Positions 13,471-43,906 of a stretch of 64,000 nucleotides of DNA are shown here, piece by piece (the first letter of the stretch is position 1; the number at the start of each line of letters is the position of its first letter). Origin of the DNA: Bacilli bacterium (GTDB taxonomy: Bacteria > Bacillota_I > Bacilli_A > ML615J-28 > CAG-313); the NCBI GenBank assembly GCA_045589955.1, contig JAZNQD010000009.1, positions 48,294-112,293 of the forward strand. Direction: 5' to 3'. A program made the position numbers and the translations under genes. The notes beneath the pieces were generated by a model, which saw only the letters and a list, made by a program, of their open reading frames with translations, did not search any database and was not told the DNA's origin.

Positions 13471-13473
13471 AAA

Positions 13474-15505: not shown

Positions 15506-15520
15506 AAAGGATATATTTTA

Positions 15521-15552: not shown

Positions 15553-15557
15553 AAAAT

Positions 15558-15590
15558 AAAAAATACCCACAAAATTTCTTTTATGGGCAC
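15558..15590 (-). terminator. rho-independent terminator of 15700..15951 gene
   Basis: CCCA-loop-TGGG hairpin followed by TATTTTTTATTTTT on minus. Confidence 0.4.
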
Positions 15591-15699
15591 TTCCTACTTA
15601 TGAGATTATTTTAAGTAATAACTACCCATCAACCGTTTATAGGTTGTTGATAATAAGGGTAGAAATATGTCATCAAAATATTCATCATGGTTTATAGAA

Positions 15700-15951
15700 C
15701 TACTTTTTAAATAAAAAATTATGTATTTTTTCTAATTTATCTTTATTTATGTCGTTTTCTTTAGTATCGGGTATAATAGCATCTACTTTACAATGTGGAC
15801 AAATTGCAGTAAGTGTATCATCAGTCCATTCCTCTATTTCTACCGTTTTAATTTTTCTTTTACAATATGCACAATAGCAAAAATCTATTTCCGATAGAAC
15901 TTCACGGTTATATATTGTCTGAGTGAGATACTTTTTCATTATATATTCCAA
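15700..15951 (-). CDS. zinc-ribbon small protein
   Basis: CYCAYC...CPHC four-Cys pattern; likely true start ATG at 15937-15939. Confidence 0.5.
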   Translation of the reverse strand: MEYIMKKYLTQTIYNREVLSEIDFCYCAYCKRKIKTVEIEEWTDDTLTAICPHCKVDAIIPDTKENDINKDKLEKIHNFLFKK

Positions 15952-16013
15952 AAAAAAGTAGAAGAGGATTAAGTTAAAGACCGTATTTTACGAAAAACAC
16001 ACTCTTAATCCTC
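15951..16013 (-). terminator. rho-independent terminator of vWA gene
   Basis: 11-bp stem AGAGGATTAAG/CTTAATCCTCT (large loop) followed by U8 on minus sense. Confidence 0.5.
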
Positions 16014-16147
16014 TCCCGGCGTCGTGAACTCTACAGCTCCGACCGATTGCTTTCTACTAAGTGCAATCATTGTTACCACTATTCATGTATCATGTTTTGG
16101 TAAACTGCTGTACGTTTTTCACGGTCTCTAAATTATTATCTAGAACA

Positions 16148-17991: not shown

Positions 17992-18338
17992 GCATTTGTC
18001 CTCTATTAATATTTAAAACAATACTTAACGCAGTACAAATATAATTTCAAGTTGATAAGAAATGCTAATTTTGATACTGCGTTTTAGTCATCTGTGCTTT
18101 GTCACTCCGATGAACCCGAGCATTCCACTTCGATCTTTAAGCAGCCAATCTGGACCCGATCTCTGTTCTCTTTATACTAGTAAACAGTCGTGAGCTAACT
18201 CTAGTAGTGTCTTTCCAACCAGCCAGATGTCTTTCCATCAGTATAGAGATTAACCACATTAAAGAATCACCAATAACTGTTAATCTCTTTTATAGAAGAT
18301 ACTACATTGCAAATTTCTCTTCTACAAATTCCTATAAA

Positions 18339-18655: not shown

Positions 18656-18862
18656 ACAAAAATAATATCTTATATAAGCGATTAATTGATACTTTATATA
18701 CAAGGTGCGAATCAGCGTTAGGCAGAGTTAGGACAATAAATCTTTCGGATATCACGACTTACCTAAGAAAATTCCTGTTAGCTCTTTCGGTGGTTGCCTC
18801 TATCATTCGTGTGTTAGATTTACTCAATTAATCATAATCCCTCGCACAAGGAATAGATATAA

Positions 18863-19314: not shown

Positions 19315-19486
19315 AAAATAAAGGTGCTTTATCAGTACTCTTACGTAATAAAGCTTCGACTGCAGTTCAGGCATCCTTTCCACCTATATAGATGTAGTTC
19401 TATACCGACTCCCTATTTCAAACATTAGGGGCATGTACCAAACAAACTTATCTAGAATCAATGTTCGTTTGGATTTAAAGTACAGA

Positions 19487-19687
19487 TTATTTAAATACTA
19501 CTGGCATAACACTTAAATAATCCGTACTTTCTTTTTTCCAATCAAACTTTTTTATTTCTTTTTTCTTATTTTTAATTACTCTAGTACGTAATAAACCTTT
19601 TAACTGAGCCTCTATCAACATAAAATTTCGTCTTTTAGGCGCTTTAATTTTAAGCTTAAACTTATTTTTCATAATCTTGACCTTCAA
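19487..19687 (-). CDS. small highly basic hypothetical protein
   Basis: 66 aa, Lys/Arg rich; directly downstream of ACP gene. Confidence 0.4.
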   Translation of the reverse strand: MKVKIMKNKFKLKIKAPKRRNFMLIEAQLKGLLRTRVIKNKKKEIKKFDWKKESTDYLSVMPVVFK

Positions 19688-19938
19688 ATATGTTTTTCAA
19701 GATATTCAACTAAGTCCTTTACAGTTTCTATTTTTTCAGCATCATTATCTGCAATTTCTAAACCAAATTCTTCTTCAACGTACATAATTAATTCAACATG
19801 ATCTAAACTATCTAAATATAAATCATTATCAAAAGTATGTGTCATAAGAATTTCATTTCTATGCTTACCTGACACGTCTTCAATTAATTTTGCAACTTTA
19901 TTGAATATCTCTTTGTTTTCCATGACCATTTCTTTCAT
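19684..19938 (-). CDS. acpP: acyl carrier protein
   Basis: MKEMVMENKEIFNKVAKLIEDV...DNDLYLDSLDHVELIMYVEEEFGLEIADNDAEKIETVKDLVEYL carries the DSL phosphopantetheine-attachment motif and helix-II acidic patch. The ORF-track N-terminal extension 19939..20106 is spurious because it overlaps two tRNAs. Confidence 0.75.
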   Translation of the reverse strand: MKEMVMENKEIFNKVAKLIEDVSGKHRNEILMTHTFDNDLYLDSLDHVELIMYVEEEFGLEIADNDAEKIETVKDLVEYLEKHI

Positions 19939-20019: not shown

Positions 20020-20028
20020 AAAAAATGC

Positions 20029-20150
20029 GGGTAAGGGATAGATTCGAACTACCGACCAAGAGGTTACCAACCATGCAGATACAATTGCTGTGCCTATTTT
20101 TACCAAAATAGTTTATTTGCTTCTTGCTCTAACCGCTGAGCTACCTTACC
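20029..20150 (-). tRNA. anomalous 122-nt tRNA (candidate Thr, GGT) with about 50 nt of extra internal sequence; possible intron-containing gene or pseudogene
   Basis: Perfect acceptor GGTAAGG/CCTTACC, D-arm GCTC-AGCGGTTAGA-GC and T-arm GGTAG-TTCGAAT-CTATC, internal CTATT-TTGGTAA-AATAG anticodon-like hairpin, 3' end GCA instead of CCA. Confidence 0.4.
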
Positions 20151-20158
20151 CATAAGAA

Positions 20159-21596: not shown

Positions 21597-21649
21597 AAGA
21601 TTTGTCCTAGCTTAATTTACCTATTATCTAGAACATTTAGTGATATAAT

Positions 21650-21726: not shown

Positions 21727-21831
21727 ATTGGCGGGGGTAGCTATATCGGTGTCATTGCGCAACCTATGTAAACGTCCAAACTATAACTAGTATTCGTAAG
21801 GATAGTTTTACCGACCCCCATAGTATAAATC

Positions 21832-22104: not shown

Positions 22105-22155
22105 GATTTAATATCCTTTTTTTAATATTATCATTTTATAGAACGGTTATTTAAT

Positions 22156-22231: not shown

Positions 22232-22756
22232 ATAAAAACAAATTTCTTTTATAGACGCTTAAGTAATAACAATCTAATTAAGACCAAGTCCTGACTAAGA
22301 AATTTAAGACTGCCAGTGTTATATTATTAAATAGGCTAATATAACAGAATAGCTTATTATTTTTTATATCGTTTCTTATTCACTATGTATTATAACTTTT
22401 GTTTCTAAAATAAATATTTACATTAAAAAATGCAATATGTAAAACAGAATATTGTATAGAATATGAAATTATTTTAATTTTGTTATAAAAAGTTATAAAA
22501 AAAGAAAAAAGTGTATCAAATTGGCGAAGATACACTTTTTTAGAGGAGAGTCAGTGATTATGTTGCTTAGTTTTTATTTAATCCAACGACGACATCCCAA
22601 GCAATAATTTCGCCGTTTTCAGGAAGAGCTTTTTTGGCATCTTCCTCAGTTTGAAAAGTTTGAGCGGCAAGTAAACCTTTCCATTCATTCTCTTCTGTTA
22701 AATATGCATCATATGAATATTCTTTATTCTTGATAACAAACATCTATATCTCCTTT

Positions 22757-28697: not shown

Positions 28698-28794
28698 AGC
28701 AAATCCTAGACTTTAAATTATTTTAGCATTTATTATAGAATTTATACGCGACAACCGTTCTAATAAATAAATGTTAAAAAGGAGAATATTCTTT

Positions 28795-29085
28795 ATGTTT
28801 GAAACTGTAAAACAGATTTTTAAGAAAAAGCCAAAACAGACTGAAGTAACTAACACTCTCATTAATGAATCTTTGGCTTTTCAAGACAGAAAATTACAAC
28901 AAATTAGTTTAGAAATTAAACCAGCAGGCAATGAAACCGTTTTAATGCTGACTGAAAAGAAATCTAATACTGAGATAGCATTAGACCAAGAAATCTGTTT
29001 TGTTTTAGCTGCGGTTTTACAAGAATATTCACTTAATGGAAATATACGTAAAATTATAAAAGAAATCGAAAAAGGGAATAATTAA
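28795..29085 (+). CDS. hypothetical protein
   Basis: Start moved to ATG 28795 (AAAGGAG RBS 9 nt upstream); GTTCTAAT motif at 28757. Confidence 0.5.
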   Translation: MFETVKQIFKKKPKQTEVTNTLINESLAFQDRKLQQISLEIKPAGNETVLMLTEKKSNTEIALDQEICFVLAAVLQEYSLNGNIRKIIKEIEKGNN

Positions 29086-29447
29086 TGGAAAATGCTTATA
29101 AATTAGCAGAAGTTTTATTAACTGATATTGATGCACATGCAGAAGCTTTTACATCAGAAGAAGGTAAAATGATTGCAACATCTGATTCTGTTATGGCATT
29201 AAATAAAATCTTAGAGAAAGCTTTTACTCTACATAAATACTTAGTTGAAAAAGAATTATACGTTGGTAAGCCTTCAATTGAAATTGCTTTGGTTGAATTA
29301 CAAAAATATATGGAAAAATTACAAATAAACCAAGAAAATGCAGAAAAATTAAATTTGTCTAATGCATTACAATTATGGAATCAAGCAAAAATAGCCGCTG
29401 CAATATTAGCTTGCAATTTATTAGATTTTAGAGATTCTTTAAACTAG
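29085..29447 (+). CDS. hypothetical protein
   Basis: 120 aa ORF, overlapping start/stop. Confidence 0.5.
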   Translation: MENAYKLAEVLLTDIDAHAEAFTSEEGKMIATSDSVMALNKILEKAFTLHKYLVEKELYVGKPSIEIALVELQKYMEKLQINQENAEKLNLSNALQLWNQAKIAAAILACNLLDFRDSLN

Positions 29448-29457
29448 GAGTAAATTT

Positions 29458-29907
29458 ATGTACGGTACTTCTAATATGACTTACTATAAGCGTTCTACAC
29501 CTAAGCCAAAAACAACTAAAATTAAAACAGTACAACCCGAAATTAGTTCCGAACACGATCTACAAAAAGCATGTGTCGCAAAATTAAGTGCACACAATAT
29601 GTTATGCTTTTGTACAGATGTTTTTAATGGTATGTCATTTATTCGTGATATTAAATTTAAAGCCATTTATAAAACGCATATGGAAAAAATGGGTGCACGC
29701 AAAGGTCAACCAGATTTAATTATTTTAAATCGTGGTAAATGTACATTTGTTGAATTTAAATGGAATAAAGGTAAAAAATCACCAGACCAAGAAGCAATGT
29801 GCAATTTAATTACTAGTATGGGTTATGAAGTTTTAGAATGGCGTACCCTAGAAGATTGTACAAATTGGATTTTAGCTAATGTAGATTTAAACCAGAAAGA
29901 AGAATAA
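29458..29907 (+). CDS. VRR-NUC domain nuclease (PD-(D/E)xK)
   Basis: GQPDLIILNRGKCTFVEFKWNKGKKSPDQ matches VRR-NUC D...E.K core. Confidence 0.55.
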   Translation: MYGTSNMTYYKRSTPKPKTTKIKTVQPEISSEHDLQKACVAKLSAHNMLCFCTDVFNGMSFIRDIKFKAIYKTHMEKMGARKGQPDLIILNRGKCTFVEFKWNKGKKSPDQEAMCNLITSMGYEVLEWRTLEDCTNWILANVDLNQKEE

Positions 29908-29908
29908 T

Positions 29909-30382
29909 ATGCCAGTTTGGAAACAATTAGCACAATCTACACCAAAAGTATCACCAGGTGCAGTAAATAATTCATCTAAAACAAATATTAGTAATTTTAA
30001 TTTGCAATATGATTCAAAAAAGAAAATTATTACATATTATGGATCAGTTGCATCTAGCTCTATGCCGGGTGGATACAATGTAATAATTAGTTTTTTAAAT
30101 GTAGGTCCAGAAGACGGTCTTACAGATGATGAGATTTTACAAGGCTTTAAACCAAAACCATCTCTTGCTAACAATGAAGTCCAAGTAAGATGTTCTTGTC
30201 CGGCATATCGTTTTAGATTTGACCAAGCTAATAGAAGTCATGGTGCAGGTACAGGTAAAAAGTTTCCAAATTACCATAGAAAAACAGATCGCGCTCCAAA
30301 TAATCCAAATAATTTACCCGGCTTTTGTAAACATCTTTTGGAGTTCGTTGAATATTTACAGCGTCAAGGATTTATACATTGA
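29909..30382 (+). CDS. SWIM zinc-finger protein
   Basis: CSCPAYRF...PGFCKHL gives a CxCxnCxH SWIM signature. Confidence 0.5.
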   Translation: MPVWKQLAQSTPKVSPGAVNNSSKTNISNFNLQYDSKKKIITYYGSVASSSMPGGYNVIISFLNVGPEDGLTDDEILQGFKPKPSLANNEVQVRCSCPAYRFRFDQANRSHGAGTGKKFPNYHRKTDRAPNNPNNLPGFCKHLLEFVEYLQRQGFIH

Positions 30383-30972
30383 TTAAAGTTTCTATAATAA
30401 TCCCCGTTTATAATACTGAAAAATACATAAGAAAATGTCTAGAATCGGCAATTAATCAAACTTTAACCGATATTGAGATAATTTGTATTAATGATGGTTC
30501 AACAGATAATAGCCTAAGTATATTATATGAATATGCAGCTAAAGATTCTCGTATACGTGTATTCACTAAAGCAAATGAAGGTGTAGCAAAAGCACGTAAT
30601 TTAGGTTTACGTCATGCTAGAGGTGAATATGTTGGTTTTATAGACAGTGATGATTTTGTAGATGAAAAATACTTTGAAGAATTATATAGCTATGGTCCAC
30701 AATACGATGTGATACGTGGAATAAGAGTTATAGATGAAACTAATAAACAAGGTAAGAATAAATATGGTTGCATTATTCCATCTATAATAAAAAGAAACGT
30801 ATTAGTTAAGCATAATTTATTTTTCCCTAATAGAAAATCTGGAGAAGATAGTACATTTAAACGCTGGCTTTATAACGCAACTCGAAACATTTTTGAATGC
30901 CCAGATAAAGGTATATATTATCATTATATGCGTAGAGCCGGGTCCCTTTCTAACTATGATATAAAAGAGTAA
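30379..30972 (+). CDS. family 2 glycosyltransferase
   Basis: VSIIIPVYNTEKYIRKCLESAINQTLTDIEIICINDGSTDNS ... FIDSDD (DxD). Confidence 0.75.
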   Translation: MIKVSIIIPVYNTEKYIRKCLESAINQTLTDIEIICINDGSTDNSLSILYEYAAKDSRIRVFTKANEGVAKARNLGLRHARGEYVGFIDSDDFVDEKYFEELYSYGPQYDVIRGIRVIDETNKQGKNKYGCIIPSIIKRNVLVKHNLFFPNRKSGEDSTFKRWLYNATRNIFECPDKGIYYHYMRRAGSLSNYDIKE

Positions 30973-30976
30973 TATT

Positions 30977-31669
30977 ATGACACAGCCTTTAGTCTCAATT
31001 ATTTTAACAGTATATGATACCAAATTACAATATTTACAAGAATGTATAGAGAGTCTTTTGCAACAAACTCACAAAAATATTGAAATTATTGTAATTGATG
31101 ATGCTTCTCCAAATACTACCTATGATCACATTGTAGAATTTTCAAATAAAATCAAGTTGTATAGAAACCCTGAAAATTTAAAAATGAATAAATCAGTAAA
31201 CAAAGGATTCGATTTATCAACAGGTAAATATGTAGTTAGATTAGGCAGTGATGATATTTTTCATAACGAAATGCTAGAAAAAGAAGTAGCTTATCTTGAA
31301 AATCATCCAGAAGTCGGCGCAGTTTGTTGTGAATTAAAACGTTTCGGTTGTGACCAGCATCAACATATTAGACGACCGAAAACTTGGAATTATAATAATA
31401 TTGTAAACAATCGAATTTTTGCCGGTACTGGTTATGCTGGTGGTATGATGTTTAGACACGAACTTTTGGAATTTTGTTCAATAGATGAAGATTTTAAGAT
31501 GTGTGAAGATTTTGATTTTCATCTACAATTATTGAAACATATGCCCATTGCAAGTATTCATGAGATTTTATATTATTACCGCTCGCACGAAACAAATTTA
31601 TGTAAAAGTGTAAGCCGTCAAGAACGATGGGCTCTTTTAGATAAGATTATTGCTAAACACAAAAACTAA
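30977..31669 (+). CDS. family 2 glycosyltransferase
   Basis: VSIILTVYDTKLQYLQECIESLLQQTHKNIEIIVIDDASPNTT ... LGSDD. Confidence 0.7.
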   Translation: MTQPLVSIILTVYDTKLQYLQECIESLLQQTHKNIEIIVIDDASPNTTYDHIVEFSNKIKLYRNPENLKMNKSVNKGFDLSTGKYVVRLGSDDIFHNEMLEKEVAYLENHPEVGAVCCELKRFGCDQHQHIRRPKTWNYNNIVNNRIFAGTGYAGGMMFRHELLEFCSIDEDFKMCEDFDFHLQLLKHMPIASIHEILYYYRSHETNLCKSVSRQERWALLDKIIAKHKN

Positions 31670-31724
31670 TTTATTCTTTTAATATCAAGTTCTAATACAA
31701 TATTTAGAATAAAGAGAGTAAATT

Positions 31725-32696
31725 ATGCCTGATATAACATTAAATATCCCTTCTAATAGTAAATTTCACAGTAGCCTTAACGAAATAGATTTGGCTATGG
31801 GTGCAGTTTTACTCAATCAAATGAGAATAGCTGATCCACGTAATAAGCTGGGTTTGCAAGACGTTTTAGCAACAGAAGAAAAAAATGATTGGTTATGGGA
31901 CTATTCTAGGGTTTTTCAAGTAGATGAATTAACCACAGAAGAAATATTTAATACTTATTTATTACGCAAAAATATTAATAAAGAAAAAGGCGTAGATATT
32001 ACTTATCCAATCTTAGCATACTTACAAAACGATTTAGAAACAGTATTTTGGGGTACAGGTAATAGATTTAGACAATGGTATTTTGATTTACCAACACCGG
32101 CTGATTCTTGGGAGGTTGGTGATTCTGTATTTATTACGGCACCAGCTAAATATAGAGGTTTACAAGGTGAAATAGAAGAAGTAAAGACAGAAGATTCCCA
32201 GTTATATTGTAAATTGTCTATTAACGGTCAAATTATCACAAATACACTTCCTAATTTTAAAAAAGAAGAAATGTGGTTTAAAATAGAAGACCTTCGTCAA
32301 GTTGGCGATAAAACACCTTCAACTTATAAAGCTAAATCTGTAAAAGGTACGTATACGGCTGTAATATTGTGTGATAATAGAGACGAATTACAATATTTGC
32401 GTGATAAATTTATTTTACGCTGTGCTGATGGTCAAATTTGGCATAAATACGCATCTCCTTCAATTAACGGCGCTGAAAATCAATTATTTACAGTATTTGA
32501 TATTCCTAACATTGAAAGATATCCTGCTTCACAAGATAAATTAAAAGGTGAAGGTTATATCTACGGCTCTGCATTTAAGATTAATTATTGGGGATGCTTA
32601 ACAGATACACCATTACCGCAATCATTAATTGAGACAATCCGTATGAATATTCATGTAGAAGGAGACGGTAGAACTAATCGAATAGTTATTAGTTAA
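31725..32696 (+). CDS. hypothetical protein (late operon)
   Basis: 323 aa; GTTCTAAT motif at 31686. Confidence 0.55.
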   Translation: MPDITLNIPSNSKFHSSLNEIDLAMGAVLLNQMRIADPRNKLGLQDVLATEEKNDWLWDYSRVFQVDELTTEEIFNTYLLRKNINKEKGVDITYPILAYLQNDLETVFWGTGNRFRQWYFDLPTPADSWEVGDSVFITAPAKYRGLQGEIEEVKTEDSQLYCKLSINGQIITNTLPNFKKEEMWFKIEDLRQVGDKTPSTYKAKSVKGTYTAVILCDNRDELQYLRDKFILRCADGQIWHKYASPSINGAENQLFTVFDIPNIERYPASQDKLKGEGYIYGSAFKINYWGCLTDTPLPQSLIETIRMNIHVEGDGRTNRIVIS

Positions 32697-32821
32697 TATA
32701 AACAATTACAATATTTTAATTAATATAGGTTCTAGTTTTATATATTTCTAGTTTAATTTTCATATTACAATAGTTCTAGTTTTTAGTTTATAATCAAAAT
32801 ATATTAAAGGAAAAGATACAA

Positions 32822-33889
32822 ATGGCAAAATTTTTGAAAAGACTTTCTGCTCGTGTAGCTCGTGAAGCTTTACGTGAAAGTGCAAAAGAAGCTAAAAACT
32901 GGATCGTTTCTAGAAAATTGATTTTAGAAACTGAAGAAGGTGATATTGAATTCGATAAAGGTGAAACAGTTGAAATCGGTGCTACACCTGAAGGTGATAT
33001 GGCATTGAATGGTTCTGCTGCTGTTGTTGTTATTTCAGATGCTGATTTAGCTGCTAAGATTGCAGACGTTGTTGTTTCTTCTGATGAATTATCTGACGTT
33101 AACTTCGTTGAAAAACCAGCTTTAGATGCTGTTATGGACGGTGAAGAAGTTGATGATGTAATCGACAGTCTTGCTGATGACGACAATGATGAAGTTGAAG
33201 TTGCAGAATTAGACATTGAACAAAAAGAAGCTGTTGAAACTAAGTTTGCTAAATTTAGTGAAAATCGCATGAATCCTGCTAAGTTCTTTGTTTGCGAATC
33301 AATTTTGGTTGACGAAACTGATAATGCTCCTCTTAACTTAAGACTTATCAAAACTGATTCAGTTAAAAAAGAAAGTTTCTCTGAATACAAAAAATTCGCT
33401 GGTCGTGTAGCTGAATTAAATGGTTCAATTCAACCAGGTAAAAGAGAAATTGCTTTGTCAGAAGCTGGCGAAATCATGGGTGCATATGATACAGAAGCTA
33501 ATGCTGGTGAAATTTATCCTGAAAACACATTTGAATCTGTAGATGCTATGGATAATTTCGATGCTGCTCCTGCTGCTTTGATGCAATATGAAGATTATGG
33601 TGATAATGCTGAAGTTCTCGAATCTGCATTAGGTGCTTTCGAAGAATCTGCAAAATCTGGTAAAGATTACGTTGCTTTAGTTGAAGCTGTTGAAAAAACA
33701 GGTTTGGCTGAAGAAGCAGTTGCTAAAATCGTAGCTACTTTTGATAATCGTTCTTTAACAGAATGCGTACGTGCTTTTGATACAAAGTATGGTAAATATG
33801 TAGCTGCATTTAAAGAATCTGTGGATTGCGACAACTTCATCGCTGAAACAGGCGAAGAAAAACGTTTCACAAAGCGTTTCTTCGCGTAA
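32822..33889 (+). CDS. highly acidic protein (possible scaffold / internal virion protein)
   Basis: 355 aa, D/E rich, strong AAAGGAAAAG RBS, own terminator; function inferred only from composition and position. Confidence 0.55.
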   Translation: MAKFLKRLSARVAREALRESAKEAKNWIVSRKLILETEEGDIEFDKGETVEIGATPEGDMALNGSAAVVVISDADLAAKIADVVVSSDELSDVNFVEKPALDAVMDGEEVDDVIDSLADDDNDEVEVAELDIEQKEAVETKFAKFSENRMNPAKFFVCESILVDETDNAPLNLRLIKTDSVKKESFSEYKKFAGRVAELNGSIQPGKREIALSEAGEIMGAYDTEANAGEIYPENTFESVDAMDNFDAAPAALMQYEDYGDNAEVLESALGAFEESAKSGKDYVALVEAVEKTGLAEEAVAKIVATFDNRSLTECVRAFDTKYGKYVAAFKESVDCDNFIAETGEEKRFTKRFFA

Positions 33890-33920
33890 TTACATCTTTA
33901 TAATGTGATTAAAAAATACA

Positions 33921-33952
33921 AAAAGGGTTCCTAATTTTGGGACCCTTTTTTA
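33921..33952 (+). terminator. rho-independent terminator
   Basis: AAAAGGGTTCC-loop-GGGACCCTTTTTTAT. Confidence 0.6.
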
Positions 33953-33981
33953 TGTTCTATAGAAATATATTAAACTAGCTT

Positions 33982-34272
33982 ATGGAAAGTAAAATGTATT
34001 TGATACGAGAAAATGTACAAGATGAAGAAATAACTGGTTATTGGATCGATGAAAAAATTAATGGTAAATTAATTGAATCCCATTTCGTAACAAAAGACTT
34101 AAAGACTTGCTCTTGCAGATATTTTGCAGAATCCAAAAACCCTTATAATCATTTTCATATCAATTTATGCTCGTATTGGATAAAATCTGGTAAACCACAA
34201 TGTGCAATGTATGCTAAATCAAAAAAAGGTAAAATCGTTGTGCTTTGTCCAGGTTTTACTAAAATTAAATAA
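33982..34272 (+). CDS. small Cys/His-rich (SWIM-like) protein
   Basis: CSCRYFAESKNPYNHFHINLC plus C-terminal Cys residues. Confidence 0.45.
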   Translation: MESKMYLIRENVQDEEITGYWIDEKINGKLIESHFVTKDLKTCSCRYFAESKNPYNHFHINLCSYWIKSGKPQCAMYAKSKKGKIVVLCPGFTKIK

Positions 34273-34380
34273 GCTTAACAATTTATATTTACTAAAGTTC
34301 TAATTATAAAATGATTGTAATATTATAATAAAATACGTATTCTTTTATAAGTACAAAAAGTTTTAATGAGGATAAAAAGC

Positions 34381-35112
34381 ATGAATCTTAGAGATCGTTT
34401 AACACAAGCTGCAAAAAACAGTTTAAGTGAAGGATTAGAAAGTTCAAAAGATATCATCGGTGATAACATTGTTCCTTCTTTTGAAGAAATGGGCATGGCA
34501 AGCGTTGAACCAGGTGAATTCGCACAAGGTGAAATTACTGATCAAGAAAATTTAGTAAACAAAGGCAATATGTCTAACGATAATACTTTCAATAGCGAAA
34601 AAAATGACGCAGGTTCTGAAGTTGCTAATGCTATTGATGATATGGTAGATGATATTGTTGATATTTCAGATAAAGATGAAGATTCAGAAGTAGCATCTAT
34701 TGAAATTACACAAACGACAGAAGATGATGCTGAAAAATGCGAAGAAAAGAAATGTAATCCATTTGGTGAATCTACTTTCGCAAAATTAGTTGAAAATGCT
34801 TTGGGCGGAAAAACTTGTGAGCAATATTTAAAAGAATCTGGCAACTACGCAGGTCCATTAGATTTCGTACCAGATACACGTATCAACGTTTCAGATGTAT
34901 TAACTACTTTAAAACGTGAATTAGGTGAAGGTTCAGAAGGTATTCACGTAGATCAAGTATACGATGAACGTAGAAACAATGCTTATCAAGTTTCACAATT
35001 CGATAAAGAAAAGTTACCTAAAAAAATTCAAGTAGAAAACGTATTGCTTGAATTAGATGGTGATACATATAAAGTAAATAAAGTTAGTGATTCTTTCCCA
35101 TTAGCTCGTTAA
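34381..35112 (+). CDS. acidic hypothetical protein
   Basis: Start moved to ATG 34381 (GAGGA RBS); D/E rich. Confidence 0.5.
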   Translation: MNLRDRLTQAAKNSLSEGLESSKDIIGDNIVPSFEEMGMASVEPGEFAQGEITDQENLVNKGNMSNDNTFNSEKNDAGSEVANAIDDMVDDIVDISDKDEDSEVASIEITQTTEDDAEKCEEKKCNPFGESTFAKLVENALGGKTCEQYLKESGNYAGPLDFVPDTRINVSDVLTTLKRELGEGSEGIHVDQVYDERRNNAYQVSQFDKEKLPKKIQVENVLLELDGDTYKVNKVSDSFPLAR

Positions 35113-35126
35113 TATCAGAGGCTAAT

Positions 35127-36023
35127 ATGAGATTTATACCAAAAGTAAAAGAACCTATAGTAGAATCTGTAACGGTAACGGTAACCGAAGCAGAAGTTAA
35201 TCCATTAGAAACAAATGGTGTTGATTTATCTTACGATGAACAATATAAACAGGCTATTTTAAAAGCAATAGGTAGTGAAACCTCTGCTCATGTAGAGTAT
35301 GATCAAATATTAGCCCTTGAACCACATGTCAGTACAAAATCATTAGTAGATTTATTTCACGATACATTAATAGATATTCGTGACGAAGAAATGAAGCATA
35401 TCGCTCAGCTTACAACTAAAATAAGCGAAGTACCTGAAATGAAAGCTTCTTTTGAGGCTGGTGAAGAAGAAGCAGAAACTGGTGAAGACAAAGAAACCTC
35501 TAATCAAGAAGAAACAGAAGAAAACGAAAAAGAGGAAGTTAAAGAATCCGTGGAATTATTGACTGAAGCTGTACAAACAAATCGTTTATATGATACTTAT
35601 ACAATCTCACAAATAATTGCAGATAAGCTTGGGTTAAATGATAAACAATATGAAATTATAGAAGATATGTTTAGATATGCCGATGATGAATTAGAAGCCG
35701 GTGAAGTCGATTCATATCTTGTTAAAATTTCAGAGTACTTTAGAATTTCAGATCATAAATTAGAAGAAATTGAAAACGCAATTATTGCATCTAATGACCC
35801 AATAGCAGATAGAAAAAGTGAATTTGCTGATGACATTCAATCTGATATTTATGATATTGAAAATACTATAGAAAAAGTATCTTCTATTGCAGCCAAAGAA
35901 AAATTATACTCTGTAATTGAATATCTTAAAAACTTAGAGTATAATGGTGAAAAAGAAGTAGGCTGGTCAGTAAGACATTCTATGTTTGGTAGTAGAAATC
36001 CAAAGAAAAGGATTGTTGCATAA
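35127..36023 (+). CDS. acidic hypothetical protein
   Basis: 298 aa, E-rich central region. Confidence 0.55.
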   Translation: MRFIPKVKEPIVESVTVTVTEAEVNPLETNGVDLSYDEQYKQAILKAIGSETSAHVEYDQILALEPHVSTKSLVDLFHDTLIDIRDEEMKHIAQLTTKISEVPEMKASFEAGEEEAETGEDKETSNQEETEENEKEEVKESVELLTEAVQTNRLYDTYTISQIIADKLGLNDKQYEIIEDMFRYADDELEAGEVDSYLVKISEYFRISDHKLEEIENAIIASNDPIADRKSEFADDIQSDIYDIENTIEKVSSIAAKEKLYSVIEYLKNLEYNGEKEVGWSVRHSMFGSRNPKKRIVA

Positions 36024-36406
36024 TGTCAAAAACGAGAACTTTATTTACAGAAGCTTTGAATCCTTTAAATAAAATTGCAAATAGCATTATTAAAAAATTA
36101 AACTACATCGAGTCAAGTTTAATCTTAGAAACACAAGATTTTGAAAAAGCTAAAGGTTATTTACATAAAACAGCATTATTTCATTCAAATTCTTATGATG
36201 AATTAAACGAAGAACAACAAAATCTCGTTCTAGAAAAAGTATGGAATACAATTCATAAGGTATTAGGTCAAAAACCGGTTGAAGAATCTGATAATTTAGA
36301 AGAATTAGAAGCAAAAATCTATAATTTTTTGAAAACGAACGGTGGTATCTTATATCCTTTAGAATTGTCAGCGAAAAAATTAGCTCAAGCAATTAAAGAA
36401 AAATAA
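36023..36406 (+). CDS. hypothetical protein
   Basis: 127 aa, ATGA overlap with upstream gene. Confidence 0.5.
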   Translation: MSKTRTLFTEALNPLNKIANSIIKKLNYIESSLILETQDFEKAKGYLHKTALFHSNSYDELNEEQQNLVLEKVWNTIHKVLGQKPVEESDNLEELEAKIYNFLKTNGGILYPLELSAKKLAQAIKEK

Positions 36407-36412
36407 GTAGAT

Positions 36413-37321
36413 ATGACAGATTTAAAAAGGAAGACAATTACCCAGCCATGGTTACATACCAAAGAATGGGCAGATAAACAACATATAAGTTACCCAAACA
36501 ATGTCCTTTCTGAAAAAGCACGTTCCTTTTTAACGTATACAATGCCAGAAAAACCATATCCTAATGATTTAAACTTAGATTTGGTATATATTTTAAAAGC
36601 AAGTGAATCAAATCCAGATATAAGAATTTCTTTACGTTCGGTTGCTAAGTTTTGTAATTTTAGAAGAATTTGGATTGTAGGATATAAACCTTCATGGATT
36701 AAAGGTGTAAGATATATCCCAACTATTCAAAACCAAGATAAGTGGAAAAATAGTATAATCAATTATATGGCAGCGTGTAATTGTGAAGAAGTATCTGAAA
36801 ACTTTATCTTAATGAATGACGATTTCTTTGCATTAAGACCAATTTATAACTGGCGAGAAAACTTAAATGTTTGTTTAGGTAAGTTATCAGATGAAGTAAG
36901 GAAAAACGCAAATAATCCTAAAAAATCACGCTGGAAATATGGATTTGATTATGCCGTAGATACCTTAAAAGAATTGAAATGTGAAAACGAATTCAATTAC
37001 GAAACACATTTACCAATTATCATTAATAAAGCTAATTTTAAACAAATGATGAAACTTCCTATTATTAAAGACTTTATGGTAACAAGAAAAGTCTTACATA
37101 AGAGAAGTATATATAAGAATCTTTATCCAGATTCTGTTCTTACTAATCCTCGTAGAATTGATGATGTTAAAATTACTCTAAACCAAGACTTATCGGATGC
37201 ATGGCTAAGAGAAGATTGGTTAAGTGTTTTTGACGATACAGTGGGAAATACTAGACAATATCCAAAGCTAAATCAGTTTTTAAGTAGTTTATTTTCAGAA
37301 AAATGTAAATTTGAAGTATAA
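36413..37321 (+). CDS. Stealth-family protein (hexose-1-phosphoryltransferase / capsule phosphotransferase homolog)
   Basis: LDLVYILKASESNPD (CR1-like), DIRISLRSVAKF...RIWIVGYKPSW...FILMNDDFFAL (CR2-like: LRYSLRS, IVT, YLNDD), ETHLPIIINK (CR3-like). Confidence 0.55.
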   Translation: MTDLKRKTITQPWLHTKEWADKQHISYPNNVLSEKARSFLTYTMPEKPYPNDLNLDLVYILKASESNPDIRISLRSVAKFCNFRRIWIVGYKPSWIKGVRYIPTIQNQDKWKNSIINYMAACNCEEVSENFILMNDDFFALRPIYNWRENLNVCLGKLSDEVRKNANNPKKSRWKYGFDYAVDTLKELKCENEFNYETHLPIIINKANFKQMMKLPIIKDFMVTRKVLHKRSIYKNLYPDSVLTNPRRIDDVKITLNQDLSDAWLREDWLSVFDDTVGNTRQYPKLNQFLSSLFSEKCKFEV

Positions 37322-37491
37322 TACTTTAAGTTTAGAATATATAGCCAATAATAATCTAAATTTCAAAAAGTTCTATAAGTTAGAAGAATTTATGGGATGG
37401 TATGATAAATTAGATTAATACTTTATTATATCCTTTTCAAAGTTCTAATAATTAACTTTGATATTAAAAGAGAAACAAGGATTATAAAGAA

Positions 37492-39453
37492 ATGGCTAAC
37501 TATAAATTTCCGGGCGTATACGCTTCTATTAGAGATTTAAGTGGAGTTGTTGCAACTAATAGTACAACAGCTTGCGCATTCGTTGGTGAAGCGGAGTATG
37601 GTCCAGTAAACACTCCAGTTTTATTATCTACATTACAAGATTATACAGATCGTTTTGGTTCACTTAGCTCAAAATACGGTTACGCCGGATATTCATTAGC
37701 CGTTGCTGCTGATACTATCAACGAACACTATTTTGTACGTGTTGTTCCAATGGGTGATCCAGAAACTCCAGTTGAAGAACGTGTAAATGATGCTCACTGG
37801 GCAGCAGCTTTTGTACCAGTTACAGGTAATACAAAAGAGCTTCCTGCTTCTAAAGGTTATTTCTACGAAGAAGTTAAAGCTGCTCAAACTTCTCGTGATG
37901 CAGGTGCTGCTTCTGGTTTATTTGCTAAAGATGATGTAGATTCTGCGTTCTTAGTAATGGCAAATGATCCAAACAATCGTAAATTTTACATTTCATTAGC
38001 AGACAGTACAATTAACGAAAACCGTGCATATTCAGTATTAGCACCAACTAGATTTGAACACGAGTCTGGTGATTCAGAAAGAACATTTGTTACTGTAACA
38101 GTTCCAGCCAGTGTTGTTGATGGTATCGAAGAAGGTTCAGCAATCGTAGTTTCTCGTATGTCAAACGATGTTCTCAACGGTACATTCAAAGTATATGATT
38201 GGGCATTAGATGGTCAAACTGCTACAATTACTTATATCGTTAATGAATTAGTAGATGAAACAAATGATGCAAATGCACGTGTAGGTCGTTATCCAGATAA
38301 TAATCAAACAACTTTTACCGTAAACGTAATGGAAAAAGTTGGTCGTGTAATGCAAACTCTTGAAACATTTGAATATTGTACATTATATCCAAGCCAAGAT
38401 AACTATGGTAATTCAATGTTCATCGAAGACGTAATTAACGGCTCTTCAAATTACATTCAAGTATTTGTAAATAACAATTTCACAGATGAAGATCCAGATG
38501 CAGTAGTTATTCCAGCATTTGTTGAAAACTTACCTTTAACAGGTGGTAAATCTGGTAACTGGACAGATATGAATCAAAAATACACTGACTTAAATGCAGC
38601 ATGGGAAAACTTCCGTGACCGTTCTCAAGTTGGCGTATCATTGTTGATGAACAGTGGTTATGTAACAAAAGAAAATGTTTCATACCAAGCAAAAATGTTA
38701 GAAATCGCTGAACATCGTCGTGACTGCTTCTGCTTGTTCGATTCTCCAATGACAGAAACTGATTACGAAGATTTGATTGACTGGAGAAAAAATATTCAGG
38801 GCTTTAACTCATATCGTGGCGCAGTATCTGCACCTTGGGTTAAAACATATGATTCTGTTCAAGGTCGTGCAAACTTTGTAATGTGTCCATCAGCTTATGT
38901 TGCTAAAATCATGGGTAATGGTCAACCTTGGGTTGCTCCTGCTGGTTTAAATCGTGGTGTTCTTACATCAGCAACTGTTTCACCTACAGGTTTAACACAA
39001 TACTATGACCAAACAAAAGGCGGTAACATTTACGCTGATAATCAAGTTAACTGCATTATCAAAGATCCAAGTTCTGGTTATGTAAACTGGGGTCAAAGAA
39101 CATTACAAGCTAAACCTTCTGCATTAGACAGAATTAATGTAGCAAGAACAGTTATTTATATCGAAACTGTATTACGTGATGCAGCTAAATGGCACTTATT
39201 CGAAAACAATACAGCTTACGAACGTATGCAAATTACCTTACAATTCACAAGTTTCTTAAATTCAATTTTAAGTGCTGAAGGTATTCAAAAGTTCCAAGTT
39301 GTATGTAATGAAACAAATAATACTCCTTTAGTAATTGCCAACAATCAATTGGTAGTAGATATTTATTTGTGGCCAACATATACTGCAGAAGTTATCATTC
39401 TTAACACAACAGTTATGGGTGCAGACACTACAGTTACCGTTACAACTGCTTAA
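37492..39453 (+). CDS. tail sheath protein
   Basis: N-terminal YKFPGVYASIRDLSGVV...ACAFVGEAEYGPVNTPVLLSTLQDYTDRFGSL matches contractile tail sheath N-terminal consensus (PGVY..E...afvG...GP.n.P.l..s...f...FG); 653 aa; GTTCTAAT motifs upstream, terminator downstream. Confidence 0.75.
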   Translation: MANYKFPGVYASIRDLSGVVATNSTTACAFVGEAEYGPVNTPVLLSTLQDYTDRFGSLSSKYGYAGYSLAVAADTINEHYFVRVVPMGDPETPVEERVNDAHWAAAFVPVTGNTKELPASKGYFYEEVKAAQTSRDAGAASGLFAKDDVDSAFLVMANDPNNRKFYISLADSTINENRAYSVLAPTRFEHESGDSERTFVTVTVPASVVDGIEEGSAIVVSRMSNDVLNGTFKVYDWALDGQTATITYIVNELVDETNDANARVGRYPDNNQTTFTVNVMEKVGRVMQTLETFEYCTLYPSQDNYGNSMFIEDVINGSSNYIQVFVNNNFTDEDPDAVVIPAFVENLPLTGGKSGNWTDMNQKYTDLNAAWENFRDRSQVGVSLLMNSGYVTKENVSYQAKMLEIAEHRRDCFCLFDSPMTETDYEDLIDWRKNIQGFNSYRGAVSAPWVKTYDSVQGRANFVMCPSAYVAKIMGNGQPWVAPAGLNRGVLTSATVSPTGLTQYYDQTKGGNIYADNQVNCIIKDPSSGYVNWGQRTLQAKPSALDRINVARTVIYIETVLRDAAKWHLFENNTAYERMQITLQFTSFLNSILSAEGIQKFQVVCNETNNTPLVIANNQLVVDIYLWPTYTAEVIILNTTVMGADTTVTVTTA

Positions 39454-39473
39454 TAAACAAAGCTTTAGTAATA

Positions 39474-39510
39474 AAAGGGATCTTAGAAATAAGGTCCCTT
39501 CTTTATTATA
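39474..39510 (+). terminator. rho-independent terminator after sheath gene
   Basis: GGGATC-loop-GGTCCC followed by TTCTTTATTAT. Confidence 0.5.
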
Positions 39511-39566
39511 TGAGTTCTATATACTATATGTAAAGCAAGGAATAGCTTAAAGGAGCAAACTAAATA

Positions 39567-40157
39567 ATGGCAAAAACAAATACACCTTGGGTTGGTACAT
39601 TAGCTGAATACGAAGCTTTAGAAATACATGATCCTAAAGTAACATATATTATTACAGATGACGTAGAAATTACAGATCTTATAAAAGACGGTGAAGTATC
39701 CGAAAAAACAACTTTTTCTTCACGTAAAATACTATCTTTACTTAAACAAGCTCTTCCTCCTATGCCTGATGATAAAGATAGATTATTACATGCAAATGGC
39801 GAAGGTTATGAATGGATATTAGCAGATAACTATAGAAAACACACTGATTTTTTAGCTTCACAAGCTTTTATTGGTGCAAAATCAATTAACTTAACTCTCT
39901 ATGCTTCAGGAAGTGTATATGAAATGCCAGAATGTGGATATTTAGTGCTCAATAAATACGCTGAAGCAACAGGTGAAGTAATGTCTATTTGGAATAATAC
40001 CAACGCTGTACTTTTAGATATAGCATATTCAAGTGTACCACATTCTATAGGTTGTTTAATTTGCCCAGTAAGTAAAGGTGATTTAATTAAAATACAATAT
40101 GATTTTTCTGGCGAAACCAAAGCCTTTAAGTTTATTTATGCGAAAGGTTGTGAATAA
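39567..40157 (+). CDS. putative tail tube protein
   Basis: 196 aa ORF immediately after sheath gene (positional inference only). Confidence 0.35.
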   Translation: MAKTNTPWVGTLAEYEALEIHDPKVTYIITDDVEITDLIKDGEVSEKTTFSSRKILSLLKQALPPMPDDKDRLLHANGEGYEWILADNYRKHTDFLASQAFIGAKSINLTLYASGSVYEMPECGYLVLNKYAEATGEVMSIWNNTNAVLLDIAYSSVPHSIGCLICPVSKGDLIKIQYDFSGETKAFKFIYAKGCE

Positions 40158-40462
40158 TGAGTCAATGGTTAGGATATAAAGATAGTGTAATTGTGGCAGT
40201 AGCAAATACACGTTATGAATTAGAAAATAGCCCATTAATAGTATTAGATAATATTGTTAAGACTGAAGACAAATATGTATTAATTAAAGGCAAATACGTA
40301 TTAGAAACAAAATCACACAACGATAAAGCAATTGCAGCCAGACTTGCAGAATACCCATCAATAGAAGACCAGTTGGATATGATTTATTGGGATAGAGTTA
40401 ACAATACCAACGTTTGGGAAAATACAATTACAAGAATCAAAAAACATTACCCTAAGGATTAA
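40157..40462 (+). CDS. hypothetical protein
   Basis: 101 aa, ATGA overlap. Confidence 0.5.
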   Translation: MSQWLGYKDSVIVAVANTRYELENSPLIVLDNIVKTEDKYVLIKGKYVLETKSHNDKAIAARLAEYPSIEDQLDMIYWDRVNNTNVWENTITRIKKHYPKD

Positions 40463-40464
40463 GT

Positions 40465-41334
40465 ATGACTATTAGACAAGGTGATAAAATAGTAGCAGGT
40501 TCAGTAGTAAACCATGACTATTTGGAATTAGAAAATAAACCCGTAATCAACAATATTGTTTTACGTGGTAGTTTTACATTAGCAGATTTAGGAATACAAC
40601 CAGCAGGTGATTATCTTAAGCGTGATGAATATTTATTTTATGTTAATACTTCTACAGAATCATTAGATACTTTATATAATAATCTTTTAACTGCACTTAA
40701 CAAAAATTCTTTAGATATTAAACATTTTATACACACTGTAAAAAATGAATTAGAAGACTACGCTAAAAAAGAAGACTTGTATAAAGTGAAAGAAGATTGC
40801 TCTGATTATACTAATTTGCGCAATACACCGGATTTAAAAACCTTAGACCAATATGCAACTAAAGATCTTTTAAACGAATTCATAACAAGAGATGATTTCA
40901 ATAAAGCTCTGTCTCAACTCGATTTATCAGAATATTGTAAAAAAGAAGAATTACCGAAATTACAGTCAACAACCGCCGAGTGTAATTATATAACCAAAGA
41001 ACAACTAGACATAATGTTAAAGCGTTATGTATTAGAGAATGATTTTGAAGTACGCTTAGCCGATGAATTGAATAATATTTCATCTGAAGAAAACTATGTC
41101 GAATTAAATCAAAAAAATAAAAAAAGACAAGAACGTGATGATAAATTAAACGCTGTAATTTGGCGAATAGAACGTTATGAACAACAACTTAAATTAGGAA
41201 TAGAAACCTTAGATACAGAAAAAACATATTATGGTTTATTGCAATATGTTCAGTATTTACGCGATATTCCTCAACAAGATGCTTTTCCAAATATAAACAT
41301 TTTAACTTTTGAAGAATACTTAACAACTATCTAA
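40465..41334 (+). CDS. fibre-like structural protein
   Basis: N-terminal ELENKPVINNIVLRGSFTLADLGIQPAGDYLKRDEY shares the KP.IN.V.L.GN..L.DLGIQ motif with minus-strand tail fibres. Confidence 0.5.
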   Translation: MTIRQGDKIVAGSVVNHDYLELENKPVINNIVLRGSFTLADLGIQPAGDYLKRDEYLFYVNTSTESLDTLYNNLLTALNKNSLDIKHFIHTVKNELEDYAKKEDLYKVKEDCSDYTNLRNTPDLKTLDQYATKDLLNEFITRDDFNKALSQLDLSEYCKKEELPKLQSTTAECNYITKEQLDIMLKRYVLENDFEVRLADELNNISSEENYVELNQKNKKRQERDDKLNAVIWRIERYEQQLKLGIETLDTEKTYYGLLQYVQYLRDIPQQDAFPNINILTFEEYLTTI

Positions 41335-41345
41335 GAGAAATAATC

Positions 41346-42227
41346 ATGGCAATTAGAATTTTACACAGTGTTTTACCACCAGCCACTGACGATAAAAAAG
41401 GTGGTATTATAGTAGGTAACGATTTAGATGTAACGGCTGATGGAACTTTAACAATTGGTGGTGTTATTTCTGAAATATCTGGTAAAGGTGGATCTTGGTT
41501 ATACACAGATGGTACTAAACTAGAATGGAAAGCTTTACCTGGAACCATTGCTGTTGATAGACTTAATACAGCCTTAGTCACAAGTACCTATTTAAAAGGA
41601 AGTCAAGGCGAGGCAATATTAAACAGTTTGGCTTCAAGTGGTACATATGTTGCATTTTCTAAATATAACTCTACAAATGGTAAATTTACTATAGCTGGCC
41701 ATCAAAATAAAGTACAATTACATTATATGGCTAATACTACAATTGATGCGGGAACCAATGCTCCTACTAAAACTGTAACCTTCTTAGACGAATCTGGTAA
41801 TTCTTCATTTCCAGGTACAATTACTGCGCCATTATTAAGTGGTACTGCTACAGCTGCTCGTTACGCTGATTTGGCAGAAAAATATATTGCTGATAAAAAA
41901 TATCCAATTGGTACATTGGTTTGTTTTGGTGGTGAAAAAGAAATAACTGAAGCAACTAAAACTGTAAACGGTGTAGTTTCTGAAAAGCCGGGTTTTATTC
42001 TCAATTCTGAATCAAAAGGCTTACCTGTTGCTCTAGCTGGTAAAGTAAAAATTCGTACAATAGGTAAAGTAAATAAATTCGATAAACTAGTATTAAGTAA
42101 TACACCCGGTGTAGCTCGTGCACGTAAATGGTATGACCTATTCAAAAAGACTATTGCAATAGCTCTAGAAACAAATGCCGCAGAAGCTCAAAAATTGGTC
42201 TGTGGTGTAACGAAATTTGTTTTGTAA
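41346..42227 (+). CDS. fibre/baseplate-like structural protein
   Basis: 293 aa Gly/Thr-rich beta-type composition. Confidence 0.45.
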   Translation: MAIRILHSVLPPATDDKKGGIIVGNDLDVTADGTLTIGGVISEISGKGGSWLYTDGTKLEWKALPGTIAVDRLNTALVTSTYLKGSQGEAILNSLASSGTYVAFSKYNSTNGKFTIAGHQNKVQLHYMANTTIDAGTNAPTKTVTFLDESGNSSFPGTITAPLLSGTATAARYADLAEKYIADKKYPIGTLVCFGGEKEITEATKTVNGVVSEKPGFILNSESKGLPVALAGKVKIRTIGKVNKFDKLVLSNTPGVARARKWYDLFKKTIAIALETNAAEAQKLVCGVTKFVL

Positions 42228-43811: not shown

Positions 43812-43906
43812 AATAAAAATTCCCTAAATTAGCCTATTATTATTGTAATAGAACTTGTTTAGGGAATGACTATGTGAAATATATAAATTATATTTACATG
43901 CTATTA

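Follow-up and report, generated by a model that had tools for sequence, protein, structure and literature searches.

A GTTCTA hexamer as the probable core element of late promoters in a clade of uncultivated jumbo phages distantly related to T4

The late promoters of the Bacillus phage SPO1 are bipartite, combining −35 and −10 elements (CGTTAGA-N17-19-GATATT) that are read by gp33/gp34, and the middle promoters of T4 join a MotA box, (a/t)(a/t)TGCTT(t/c)A at −30, to a sigma70 −10 element 11–13 bp downstream. T4 late promoters carry TATAAATA at −13 to −6, where gp55 acts as the reader together with gp33 and the sliding clamp gp45 (PMC2988020, PMC1524935). They consist of one short −10-region box with no −35 element and an AT-rich segment downstream, and occur in either orientation; early and middle transcripts of T4 have one polarity and late transcripts both (PMC2988020). 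The box varies within the T4 family, the late promoters of Aeromonas phage Aeh1 being (a/g)CTAAATA (PMC1524935), and no published late consensus from coliphages, vibriophages, Aeromonas phages or cyanophages departs from TATAAATA by more than 1–2 bases (PMC2988020, PMC1524935). Here we describe the hexamer GTTCTA in a 64,000-nucleotide stretch of phage DNA (the window; contig JAZNQD010000009.1, 30% GC), in which a first-pass annotation had proposed the motif (A)GTTCTA(A/T)T as a late-promoter element or activator-binding site upstream of plus-strand late genes. The conserved unit is the hexamer GTTCTA, found on both strands. In this phage and its clade, a group of uncultivated AT-rich jumbo myoviruses of ~227–263 kb distantly related to T4, it probably forms the core by which late (or middle-plus-late) promoters are recognised.

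All nine sites of the first-pass annotation are present within 0–7 nucleotides (nt) of where it had placed them, and all are intergenic and oriented toward the downstream gene (GTTCTA starting at 28757, 31689, 32729, 32773, 33954, 34297, 37370, 37442 and 39514 on the plus strand). The longer consensus proved wrong, with GTTCTAAT in four of the nine, GTTCTAGT in two and GTTCTATA in three, and the 8-mer GTTCTAWT, tried as the unit, gave 7 matches across the window against 8.8 expected, with no enrichment; the hexamer was adopted instead. The distance from motif to likely start codon is 30–116 nt rather than 24–90, and the restriction to the plus strand falls away, as the minus strand carries ten further intergenic sites in sense orientation (10380, 13226, which is doubtful, 13843, 15695, 16141, 21629, 22139, 43849, 53532 and 62756). 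In an unbiased scan, in which every hexamer in intergenic DNA was oriented to the downstream gene and compared with a second-order Markov expectation, GTTCTA ranks first among the sense-strand hexamers of the window, with 19 copies where 2.5 would be expected (p=3e-11), ahead of the Shine-Dalgarno (SD) words, and it occurs once in the antisense intergenic orientation. No hexamer with at least two G/C positions rose above 14 in 500 shuffles of the intergenic DNA. Rather than being equally frequent inside coding regions, the hexamer is about twofold depleted in genes on both strands: it occurs 17 times in ~108 kb of coding sequence (both strands counted), with 6 sense copies against 12.1 in codon-shuffled genes (P=0.04) and 11 antisense copies against 21.7 (P=0.008).

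The hexamer recurs in related genomes. The tail sheath protein of the window is less than 35% identical to that of any cultured phage by tblastn, so that there is no characterised relative from which to borrow data; its best full-length matches are the T4-related phage RB43 and Aeromonas phages, and megablast against GenBank phages gave no nucleotide-level match for the window or its late block. As an anchor, the sheath retrieved a 237-kb contig (L002, 83% sheath identity; IMGVR_UViG_3300045988_171990) and a 36-kb contig (L001, 51%), and other anchors retrieved pieces of 227-kb (IMGVR_UViG_3300028888_000051), 124-kb, 241-kb (JAEIGA010000010.1), 263-kb (Ga0247609_10000016) and 101-kb contigs together with several shorter ones; an 897-residue fibre protein was too divergent to serve as an anchor, and exact-protein look-ups of late proteins for transcript-bounded contigs found nothing on record. 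Across ~12 related contigs (sheath identity 51–83%, contigs up to 263 kb) GTTCTA shows no change at orthologous positions, among them both tandem pairs and a post-terminator site described below, while the spacers around the sites diverge. It is again the top sense-intergenic hexamer in L001 (11 observed, 0.9 expected, 0 antisense), L002 (8, 0.95 and 0), L025 (of the pair L024/25; 6, 0.75 and 0), L027 (5, 0.55 and 1), L034 (7, 0.68 and 3) and L026 (3, 0.16 and 0), and is not enriched in the distant sheath homologues L003–L006 (24–29% sheath identity). Pooling 15 non-redundant clade loci (~380 kb) gives 80 copies against 11.8 expected (p=5e-39), at densities per kb of 1.93 in sense intergenic, 0.25 in antisense intergenic, 0.105 in coding sense and 0.176 in coding antisense DNA, and the contrast between sense and antisense reaches p=6e-15. 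None of ~20 single-substitution variants tested in the pooled loci is enriched, the seeming exception GTTTTA belonging to the −35 box of the early promoters, so that all six positions appear to be required; the seventh base is A, T or G and rarely C. Chance, or base composition in AT-rich intergenic DNA, has an effectively negligible probability of explaining the motif. In favour of such an artefact, the first motif was picked by eye and its 8-mer form is not enriched, but the unbiased scan ranks GTTCTA first, the shuffles never reach the observed count, and the strand contrast and the replication in independent genomes and at orthologous positions refute it.

The box stands alone. Alignments of 19, 46 and 80 sites contain no second conserved box between −45 and +40, and no column outside the hexamer exceeds 0.35 bits except an isolated −34 column (0.53 bits) in the 19-site window alignment. 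The flanks follow the pattern aaaGTTCTAwwwA, with a mild preference for A just 5′ of the hexamer and an A four nt past it in 54 of 80 sites (p=1e-5), and the six nt directly 3′ have 11% GC against 20% in the flanks (p=2e-7), an effect with no upstream counterpart. The SD sequence begins 9–21 nt past the hexamer and most start codons lie 22–63 nt past it (overall, 22 to >200 nt). With the SD so near, GTTCTA is not a −35 or −30 element, since the transcript would then begin within the ribosome-binding site or past it; judged by this spacing, the hexamer must lie at about −10 or overlap the transcription start. A sigma70 arrangement (TTGACA-N17-TATAAT) failed as a description of the sites, which have neither a −35 partner nor a TATAAT at fixed spacing. 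The SPO1 late promoters resemble them in being phage-specific, with host core RNA polymerase (RNAP) directed by a phage sigma, and their GTTAGA superficially recalls GTTCTA, but GTTCTA has no second box and is too near the SD for a −35 element.

The same geometry bears on whether GTTCTA could be the binding site of a phage activator that recruits sigma70 holoenzyme to weak promoters, in the manner of the MotA box at −30 or of the Mu/P2 late activators, which we consider improbable. Short invariant boxes 5′ of one gene class would also suit activator sites, the MotA box itself being a phage-specific box that defines a temporal class, and the AT-rich DNA downstream could mask weak TAnnnT −10 elements. 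However, a box at −30 or −35 would put the start inside or beyond the SD, and with the SD at +9 to +21 and start codons from +22 to +34 there is no room for it; TAnnnT shows no position-specific signal at any fixed spacing 3′ of GTTCTA; and the sites are without the dyad symmetry or repeat structure typical of activator sites. Of the two roles first proposed for the motif, the geometry thus favours a core −10-type promoter element over an activator-binding site.

Reading all intergenic gaps brought out a second promoter class of sigma70 type, TTTTTTG(T/C)TTTAC(A/T)-N16-17-(TG)TATAAT (short form GYTTTAC-N16-17-TATAAT). A regular expression made from it has 10 hits in the window against 1.2 expected; one is on the plus strand within coding sequence, and the other nine are intergenic, all on the minus strand and between 6.3 and 25.5 kb (6316, 8452, 9422, 10420, 11727, 13437, 15519, 17730 and 25489). 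Words resembling TGCTTTAC were considered as MotA boxes and rejected, their spacing to TATAAT being the 17 nt of sigma70-type promoters; they belong to this early class. In the plus-strand late block, sigma70-like sites, which might otherwise have driven its genes, show no excess (105 found against 94.8 expected). The reported absence of GTTCTA from early-promoter sites stands insofar as the early promoters differ in sequence, but three gaps hold both classes (10241–10455, 13176–13473 and 15506–15699).

The two classes serve different genes. Within the window, the genes 3′ of GTTCTA include the tail sheath, tail-fibre-like genes, a holin/spanin cassette and a tail-tip-domain gene (39567–40157, for which Pfam gives the tail-tip domain only and does not confirm its earlier labelling as the tube). 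In two relatives GTTCTA (L014:7382, L015:7256) stands 5′ of a plus-strand gene embedded among minus-strand small genes, and this gene (L014:7530–9113; L015:7479–9080) encodes a T4-type Gp23 major capsid protein (Pfam PF07068, 7e-23). Conversely, early-gene arrays (L007, L008, L011, L012, L013 and the new parts of L018 and L022) contain 0–2 GTTCTA sites each, and in these same-strand arrays of small genes only SD words stand out. There are thus two promoter classes, a host-type class that serves small open reading frames (ORFs), transfer RNAs (tRNAs) and metabolism genes in one polarity, and GTTCTA, which serves virion and lysis genes in both polarities. The proposal of a late-promoter element is supported by a motif that is oriented, intergenic, depleted in genes, placed 5′ of late-type genes and conserved across the clade. 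The location of the Gp23 gene in L014 and L015, on the opposite strand among small early-type genes and ~25–30 kb from the tail genes, differs from that in the more distant relative L016, where it lies in a conventional head-gene block, which suggests that the structural modules have been extensively rearranged in the clade.

Several sites follow an intrinsic terminator by 3–50 nt (33954, 39514 and 53532); this order, in which a promoter comes after a terminator, is a common one and argues against an element acting in RNA only. An RNA-level role, in which GTTCTA would be an endonuclease processing site or a translational-regulator site in 5′ leaders whose promoters lie elsewhere, has some appeal in that the motif is strand-specific and falls within would-be 5′ leaders, and T4 has both sequence-specific mRNA processing (RegB) and translational repressors. 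It is nevertheless very unlikely, as little RNA would be present just past strong terminators without a new promoter, the plus-strand block reveals no other class of promoter, start codons lie anywhere from 22 to >200 nt away, and depletion on the antisense coding strand is not explained by an RNA signal.

The closest known system is the gp55-type late promoter of T4, at which transcription begins ~6 nt past the box and requires DNA replication. Like that promoter in its architecture, GTTCTA is a single tightly conserved box with no conserved −35 element and an AT-rich segment directly 3′; it lies 5′ of virion and lysis genes in both orientations, whereas the early promoters are sigma70-type and of one polarity; and the clade has T4-type sheath and Gp23 capsid genes. 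It differs in the box itself, which is GTTCTA with two invariant G/C positions and not TATAAATA; in the pooled loci neither TATAAATA (25 sense against 19.5 expected, 23 antisense) nor CTAAATA (15 against 14.2) is enriched. The clade genomes are moreover jumbo-sized, with a scattered head and tail gene order. GTTCTA thus agrees with the T4 gp55-type promoter in all architectural tests run and departs from it in consensus, and is for that reason classed as a variant rather than a member. The Aeh1 box, a natural T4-family variant with C at −12, offers a possible bridge: when CTA is aligned to CTA, T-13, C-12, T-11, A-10 and the A four nt past the hexamer (as −6) coincide, and the transcription start would be set ~10 nt past the hexamer. 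Relative to Aeh1, conservation has shifted in the 5′ direction, to GTT, and the positions of AAT on the 3′ side are no more than loosely A/T. If the CTA alignment is right, the Aeh1 variant would indicate that a gp55 system can drift in the GTTCTA direction.

In the mechanism we propose, a single −10-region box without a −35 partner, in which all six bases would be needed and the flanks would contribute weakly, is followed by an AT-rich stretch that should melt easily, with transcription predicted to start ~6–10 nt past the hexamer. Early genes would be transcribed in one orientation from host-type sigma70 promoters (GYTTTAC-N16-17-TATAAT), and late genes, in either orientation, by the host RNAP after it has taken up a specificity subunit that the phage encodes, a counterpart of T4 gp55, perhaps assisted by gp33 and sliding-clamp partners; the subunit would be encoded outside the window. 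A stronger version, that the clade swapped the elsewhere nearly universal T4-family late promoter TATAAATA for an unrelated G/C-containing hexamer read by a radically re-targeted gp55 or by a protein unrelated to gp55, is put forward tentatively and appears rather doubtful.

Several points weigh against the reading of GTTCTA as a strictly late promoter of gp55 type. GTTCTA is also found 5′ of non-structural features, namely RNase H and the mini-ORFs and short terminated transcripts of the tRNA region, and at L023:16568/16609 it precedes an Hsp20-like gene and its divergent neighbour; in view of the RNase H, Hsp20-like and mini-ORF sites, “late, possibly middle plus late” is the safest class label. 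The promoter role and the late timing are deduced from gene content, and the start site and the nature of the reader are likewise predictions. The alignment to Aeh1 and TATAAATA is a hypothesis and depends mainly on one flank position, the A present in 54 of 80 sites. Gene calls were simple longest-ORF calls. Finally, and again at variance with T4, no gp55-like, sigma70-family, RNAP, gp33 or gp45 homologue was located in ~55% of a genome-equivalent of the clade, in a weak search that compared selected ORFs with PHROGs and Pfam and used single seed sequences with phmmer.

The same searches in the window, where nearly all ORFs of at least 100 residues were compared with PHROGs and/or Pfam, detected no sigma or RNAP gene. 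The first-pass annotation had placed a phage-encoded sigma or accessory factor outside the window; the absence of such a gene from the window agrees with that, although the searches did not yield the factor itself. With SigA, RpoE and T4 gp55 as seeds, phmmer on every locus returned only noise, marginal gp55 matches scoring 5–8 bits. In T4 gene 55 lies near nrdD, for which reason the NrdD neighbourhood of the 241-kb contig was walked, together with 184–237 kb of the 237-kb contig; these regions encode NAD-dependent ligase, Hsp20-like, AAA+, NrdD, thymidylate synthase, dUTPase, MazG-like, methyltransferase and primase-like genes and no gp55-like, sigma70-family or RNAP-like protein. Unannotated early proteins of the window were considered as the reader and rejected: they are not conserved in the 227-kb relative and so cannot be a clade-wide factor. 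A putative reading factor encoded outside the window would fit all of these results.

That the promoter is instead read by a phage-encoded RNAP, either single-subunit or multisubunit as in phiKZ/AR9-type phages, is unlikely. Some jumbo phages do encode their own RNAPs, which use short AT-context promoters, and both the 227–263 kb genome size and the lack of a gp55 homologue in the part of the genome covered would be in keeping with it. But the structural genes are T4-type, with a sheath whose best full-length matches are RB43 and Aeromonas phages and a Gp23-type capsid, rather than phiKZ-type, and T4-related phages use the host RNAP. Further, neither the RNAP signatures DFDGD and RHGNKG nor any PHROG RNAP match occurs in ~130 kb of clade sequence, and only 6 bp are conserved against the usual ~20 bp of single-subunit RNAP promoters. 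A host RNAP carrying a phage-encoded, sigma-like subunit is preferred.

The reading of late promoters by gp55 is held to be a hallmark conserved among T4-related phages, and the GTTCTA clade would show how far this system can drift. Should the hexamer indeed have replaced TATAAATA, it would constitute a natural case, inside the T4 superfamily, of wholesale promoter/sigma co-evolution or of one sigma taking the place of another, and would supply a compact orthogonal pair of a 6-bp promoter and its factor. The finding is incremental in that class-specific single-box late promoters are already well known; what is new is the GTTCTA consensus, for a clade in which no cultured relative was found, and a full-text literature search returned nothing relevant on GTTCTA as a phage promoter. 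In practical terms GTTCTA is a simple marker for the limits of late transcription units in uncultivated jumbo phages, draws attention to late genes that lack annotation and to candidates for late small RNAs, and defines a target for genome searches, a diverged gp55-like factor.

A single clue bears on the host. A near-copy of the L002 region (L017, JBJFGR010000069.1, 52 kb) is binned in a metagenome-assembled genome of the Succinivibrionaceae (Gammaproteobacteria, order Aeromonadales), and phages of the clade may infect this family; the clue is weak, since binning does not prove infection. A literature search found no papers on jumbo phages of Succinivibrionaceae.

The window opens with small ORFs on the minus strand (0.1–9.4 kb), followed by 20 tRNA genes on the same strand (9.8–22.2 kb), with a 21st that has an intron, and by minus-strand genes of nucleotide metabolism and replication (MazG-like, IMPDH/GMP-reductase-like, DnaB-type and ResIII helicases, RNase H). 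The plus-strand block at 28.8–42.2 kb encodes a nuclease, two GT2 glycosyltransferases, proteins of unknown function, the tail sheath and tail-fibre-like proteins. After it come, both on the minus strand, a holin/spanin-like lysis cassette (43811–42306), headed by a gene for a 207-residue protein, and a long block of structural genes, fibre-like ones among them.

The first box of the plus-strand block (28757–28762, +) heads the genes for 104- and 120-residue proteins, the nuclease and the GT2 proteins; the likely true start codon (28795) lies 32 nt 3′ and the SD AAAGGAG begins 17 nt 3′, and the orthologous boxes (L001:178, L019:4902) are followed by near-identical sequence. The next (31689–31694, +) lies 30 nt 5′ of a gene for a 323-residue protein (31725–32696) and has orthologues at L001:1841 and L019:2028. 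A tandem pair precedes the gene for a 355-residue protein (32822–33889), with the distal box at 32729–32734 (+) and the proximal box at 32773–32778 (+), 43 nt from the gene, and is kept in all three genomes (the window, L002:4669/4715 and L001:4316/4359). The unit ends in an intrinsic terminator hairpin (33920–33950, +) whose last base is 3 nt before the next GTTCTA; compensatory substitutions alter its stem between the window, L002 and L001 (GGGTTCC/GGGACCC versus GAGCTCC/GGAGCTC), and the TGTTCTA that follows it is invariant. This box (33954–33959, +; orthologues L002:5924 and L001:5623) lies directly 3′ of the terminator and 5′ of a gene (33982(33994)–34272, +) that thus has its own terminator-flanked putative GTTCTA promoter. 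The encoded 96-residue protein is rich in Cys and His, with a CxC...H pattern that by eye resembles a SWIM-type zinc finger, and is the best-conserved small protein of the plus-strand block (83% identity to L002, 70% to L001).

Further along the block, the box at 34297–34302 (+), within the conserved island AAAGTTCTAWTTATAAAA, precedes a four-gene unit (34366–37321) and has orthologues at L002:6267 and L001:5965. The sheath gene (37492–39453) has a second tandem pair, distal at 37370–37375 (+) and proximal at 37442–37447 (+), the latter 44 nt 5′ of the gene and within the conserved island AAGTTCTAAWWATTAAC; a spacing of 72–79 nt is kept in all three genomes (L002:9877/9950, L001:9867/9946). 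An intrinsic terminator (39475–39500, +) follows the sheath gene and ends 13 nt before the box at 39514–39519 (+; orthologue L002:12072), which serves the tail-tip-domain and tail-fibre-like genes (39567–42227).

On the minus strand, the box at 43849–43854 (−) lies 37 nt 5′ of the 207-residue lysis-cassette gene (orthologues L002:16866, L001:13761), that at 53532–53537 (−) lies ~50 nt past a terminator-like hairpin and 5′ of a structural block (53489–43907), and that at 62756–62761 (−) lies 46 nt 5′ of the gene for the 897-residue tail-fibre-like protein (62709–60016). Two sites adjoin the 3′ side of tRNA genes, at 22139–22144 (−), next to tRNA-Met and 34 nt 5′ of a gene for a 90-residue protein, and at 21629–21634 (−), next to tRNA-Glu and 32 nt 5′ of the RNase H gene (21596–21078). 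The box at 16141–16146 (−) is followed by ~190 nt of GC-rich non-coding sequence (15952–16140, −) that ends in a terminator-like hairpin and has no Rfam match; this stretch may be a small RNA of the late class or a long leader. After the box at 15695–15700 (−) come a 19-codon mini-ORF, a terminator, a sigma70-type promoter (15549–15519) and a tRNA cluster, and this arrangement (GTTCTATAAAnCATGATGA, then terminator, sigma70-type promoter and tRNAs) is conserved at L019:14894 in the 227-kb relative. The box at 10380–10385 (−) lies 3′ of a sigma70-type promoter (10449–10420) and is followed by a 21-codon mini-ORF, a terminator and a tRNA-Phe/Cys/His/Trp cluster. At both 10380 and 15695, ATGATGA... 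opens the mini-ORF (21 and 19 codons, respectively) 6 nt after GTTCTA, and these mini-ORFs may represent leaderless micro-peptides or short late transcripts. The box at 13843–13848 (−) lies 126 nt 5′ of a gene for an 80-residue protein. The doubtful site (13226–13231, −) falls within GC-rich non-coding DNA and has neither A-rich sequence on its 5′ side nor AT-rich sequence on its 3′ side, and is therefore probably a chance match.

GC-rich non-coding stretches recur among the tRNA genes (13176–13473, 17992–18338, 18656–18862, 19315–19486, 21727–21831 and 22232–22382) and are probably structured; Rfam, run at gathering thresholds on the whole window and in E-value mode on 13–22.6 kb, matched only tRNAs and spurious tRNA-antisense hits. 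The intron-containing gene of the tRNA set is a tRNA-Thr(ggt) with a 49-nt intron (20027–20151, −), which ARAGORN detects only with its intron option and which default ARAGORN and Rfam scans miss. In the early region, an AACCAC(A) box recurs just 5′ of the SD in the leaders of small genes (1252–1303, 2468–2520 and 4381–4462, −), and CAACCA is strongly enriched in the early region of the relative L013. The same region holds ~1.7 kb of apparently non-coding DNA (4805–5440 and 5684–6697) with a tandem repeat at 5009–5272 (period 146 nt, 77% identity over 1.8 copies, with ~3 units visible by eye), past which lies C-rich, G-poor sequence with CTCCTC words. The GC skew of this stretch is inverted relative to the adjoining minus-strand genes, and it could be an origin or regulatory region. 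Other genes of note in the window are an F420-0:gamma-glutamyl-ligase-like gene (14080–15114), a DUF2828/DUF7788 gene (16148–17701) and, among the tRNA genes, an acyl-carrier-protein-like ORF (19487–19900, −) that contains LDSLDHVELIMYVEEEFGLEI and extends 5′ of the ORF first called.

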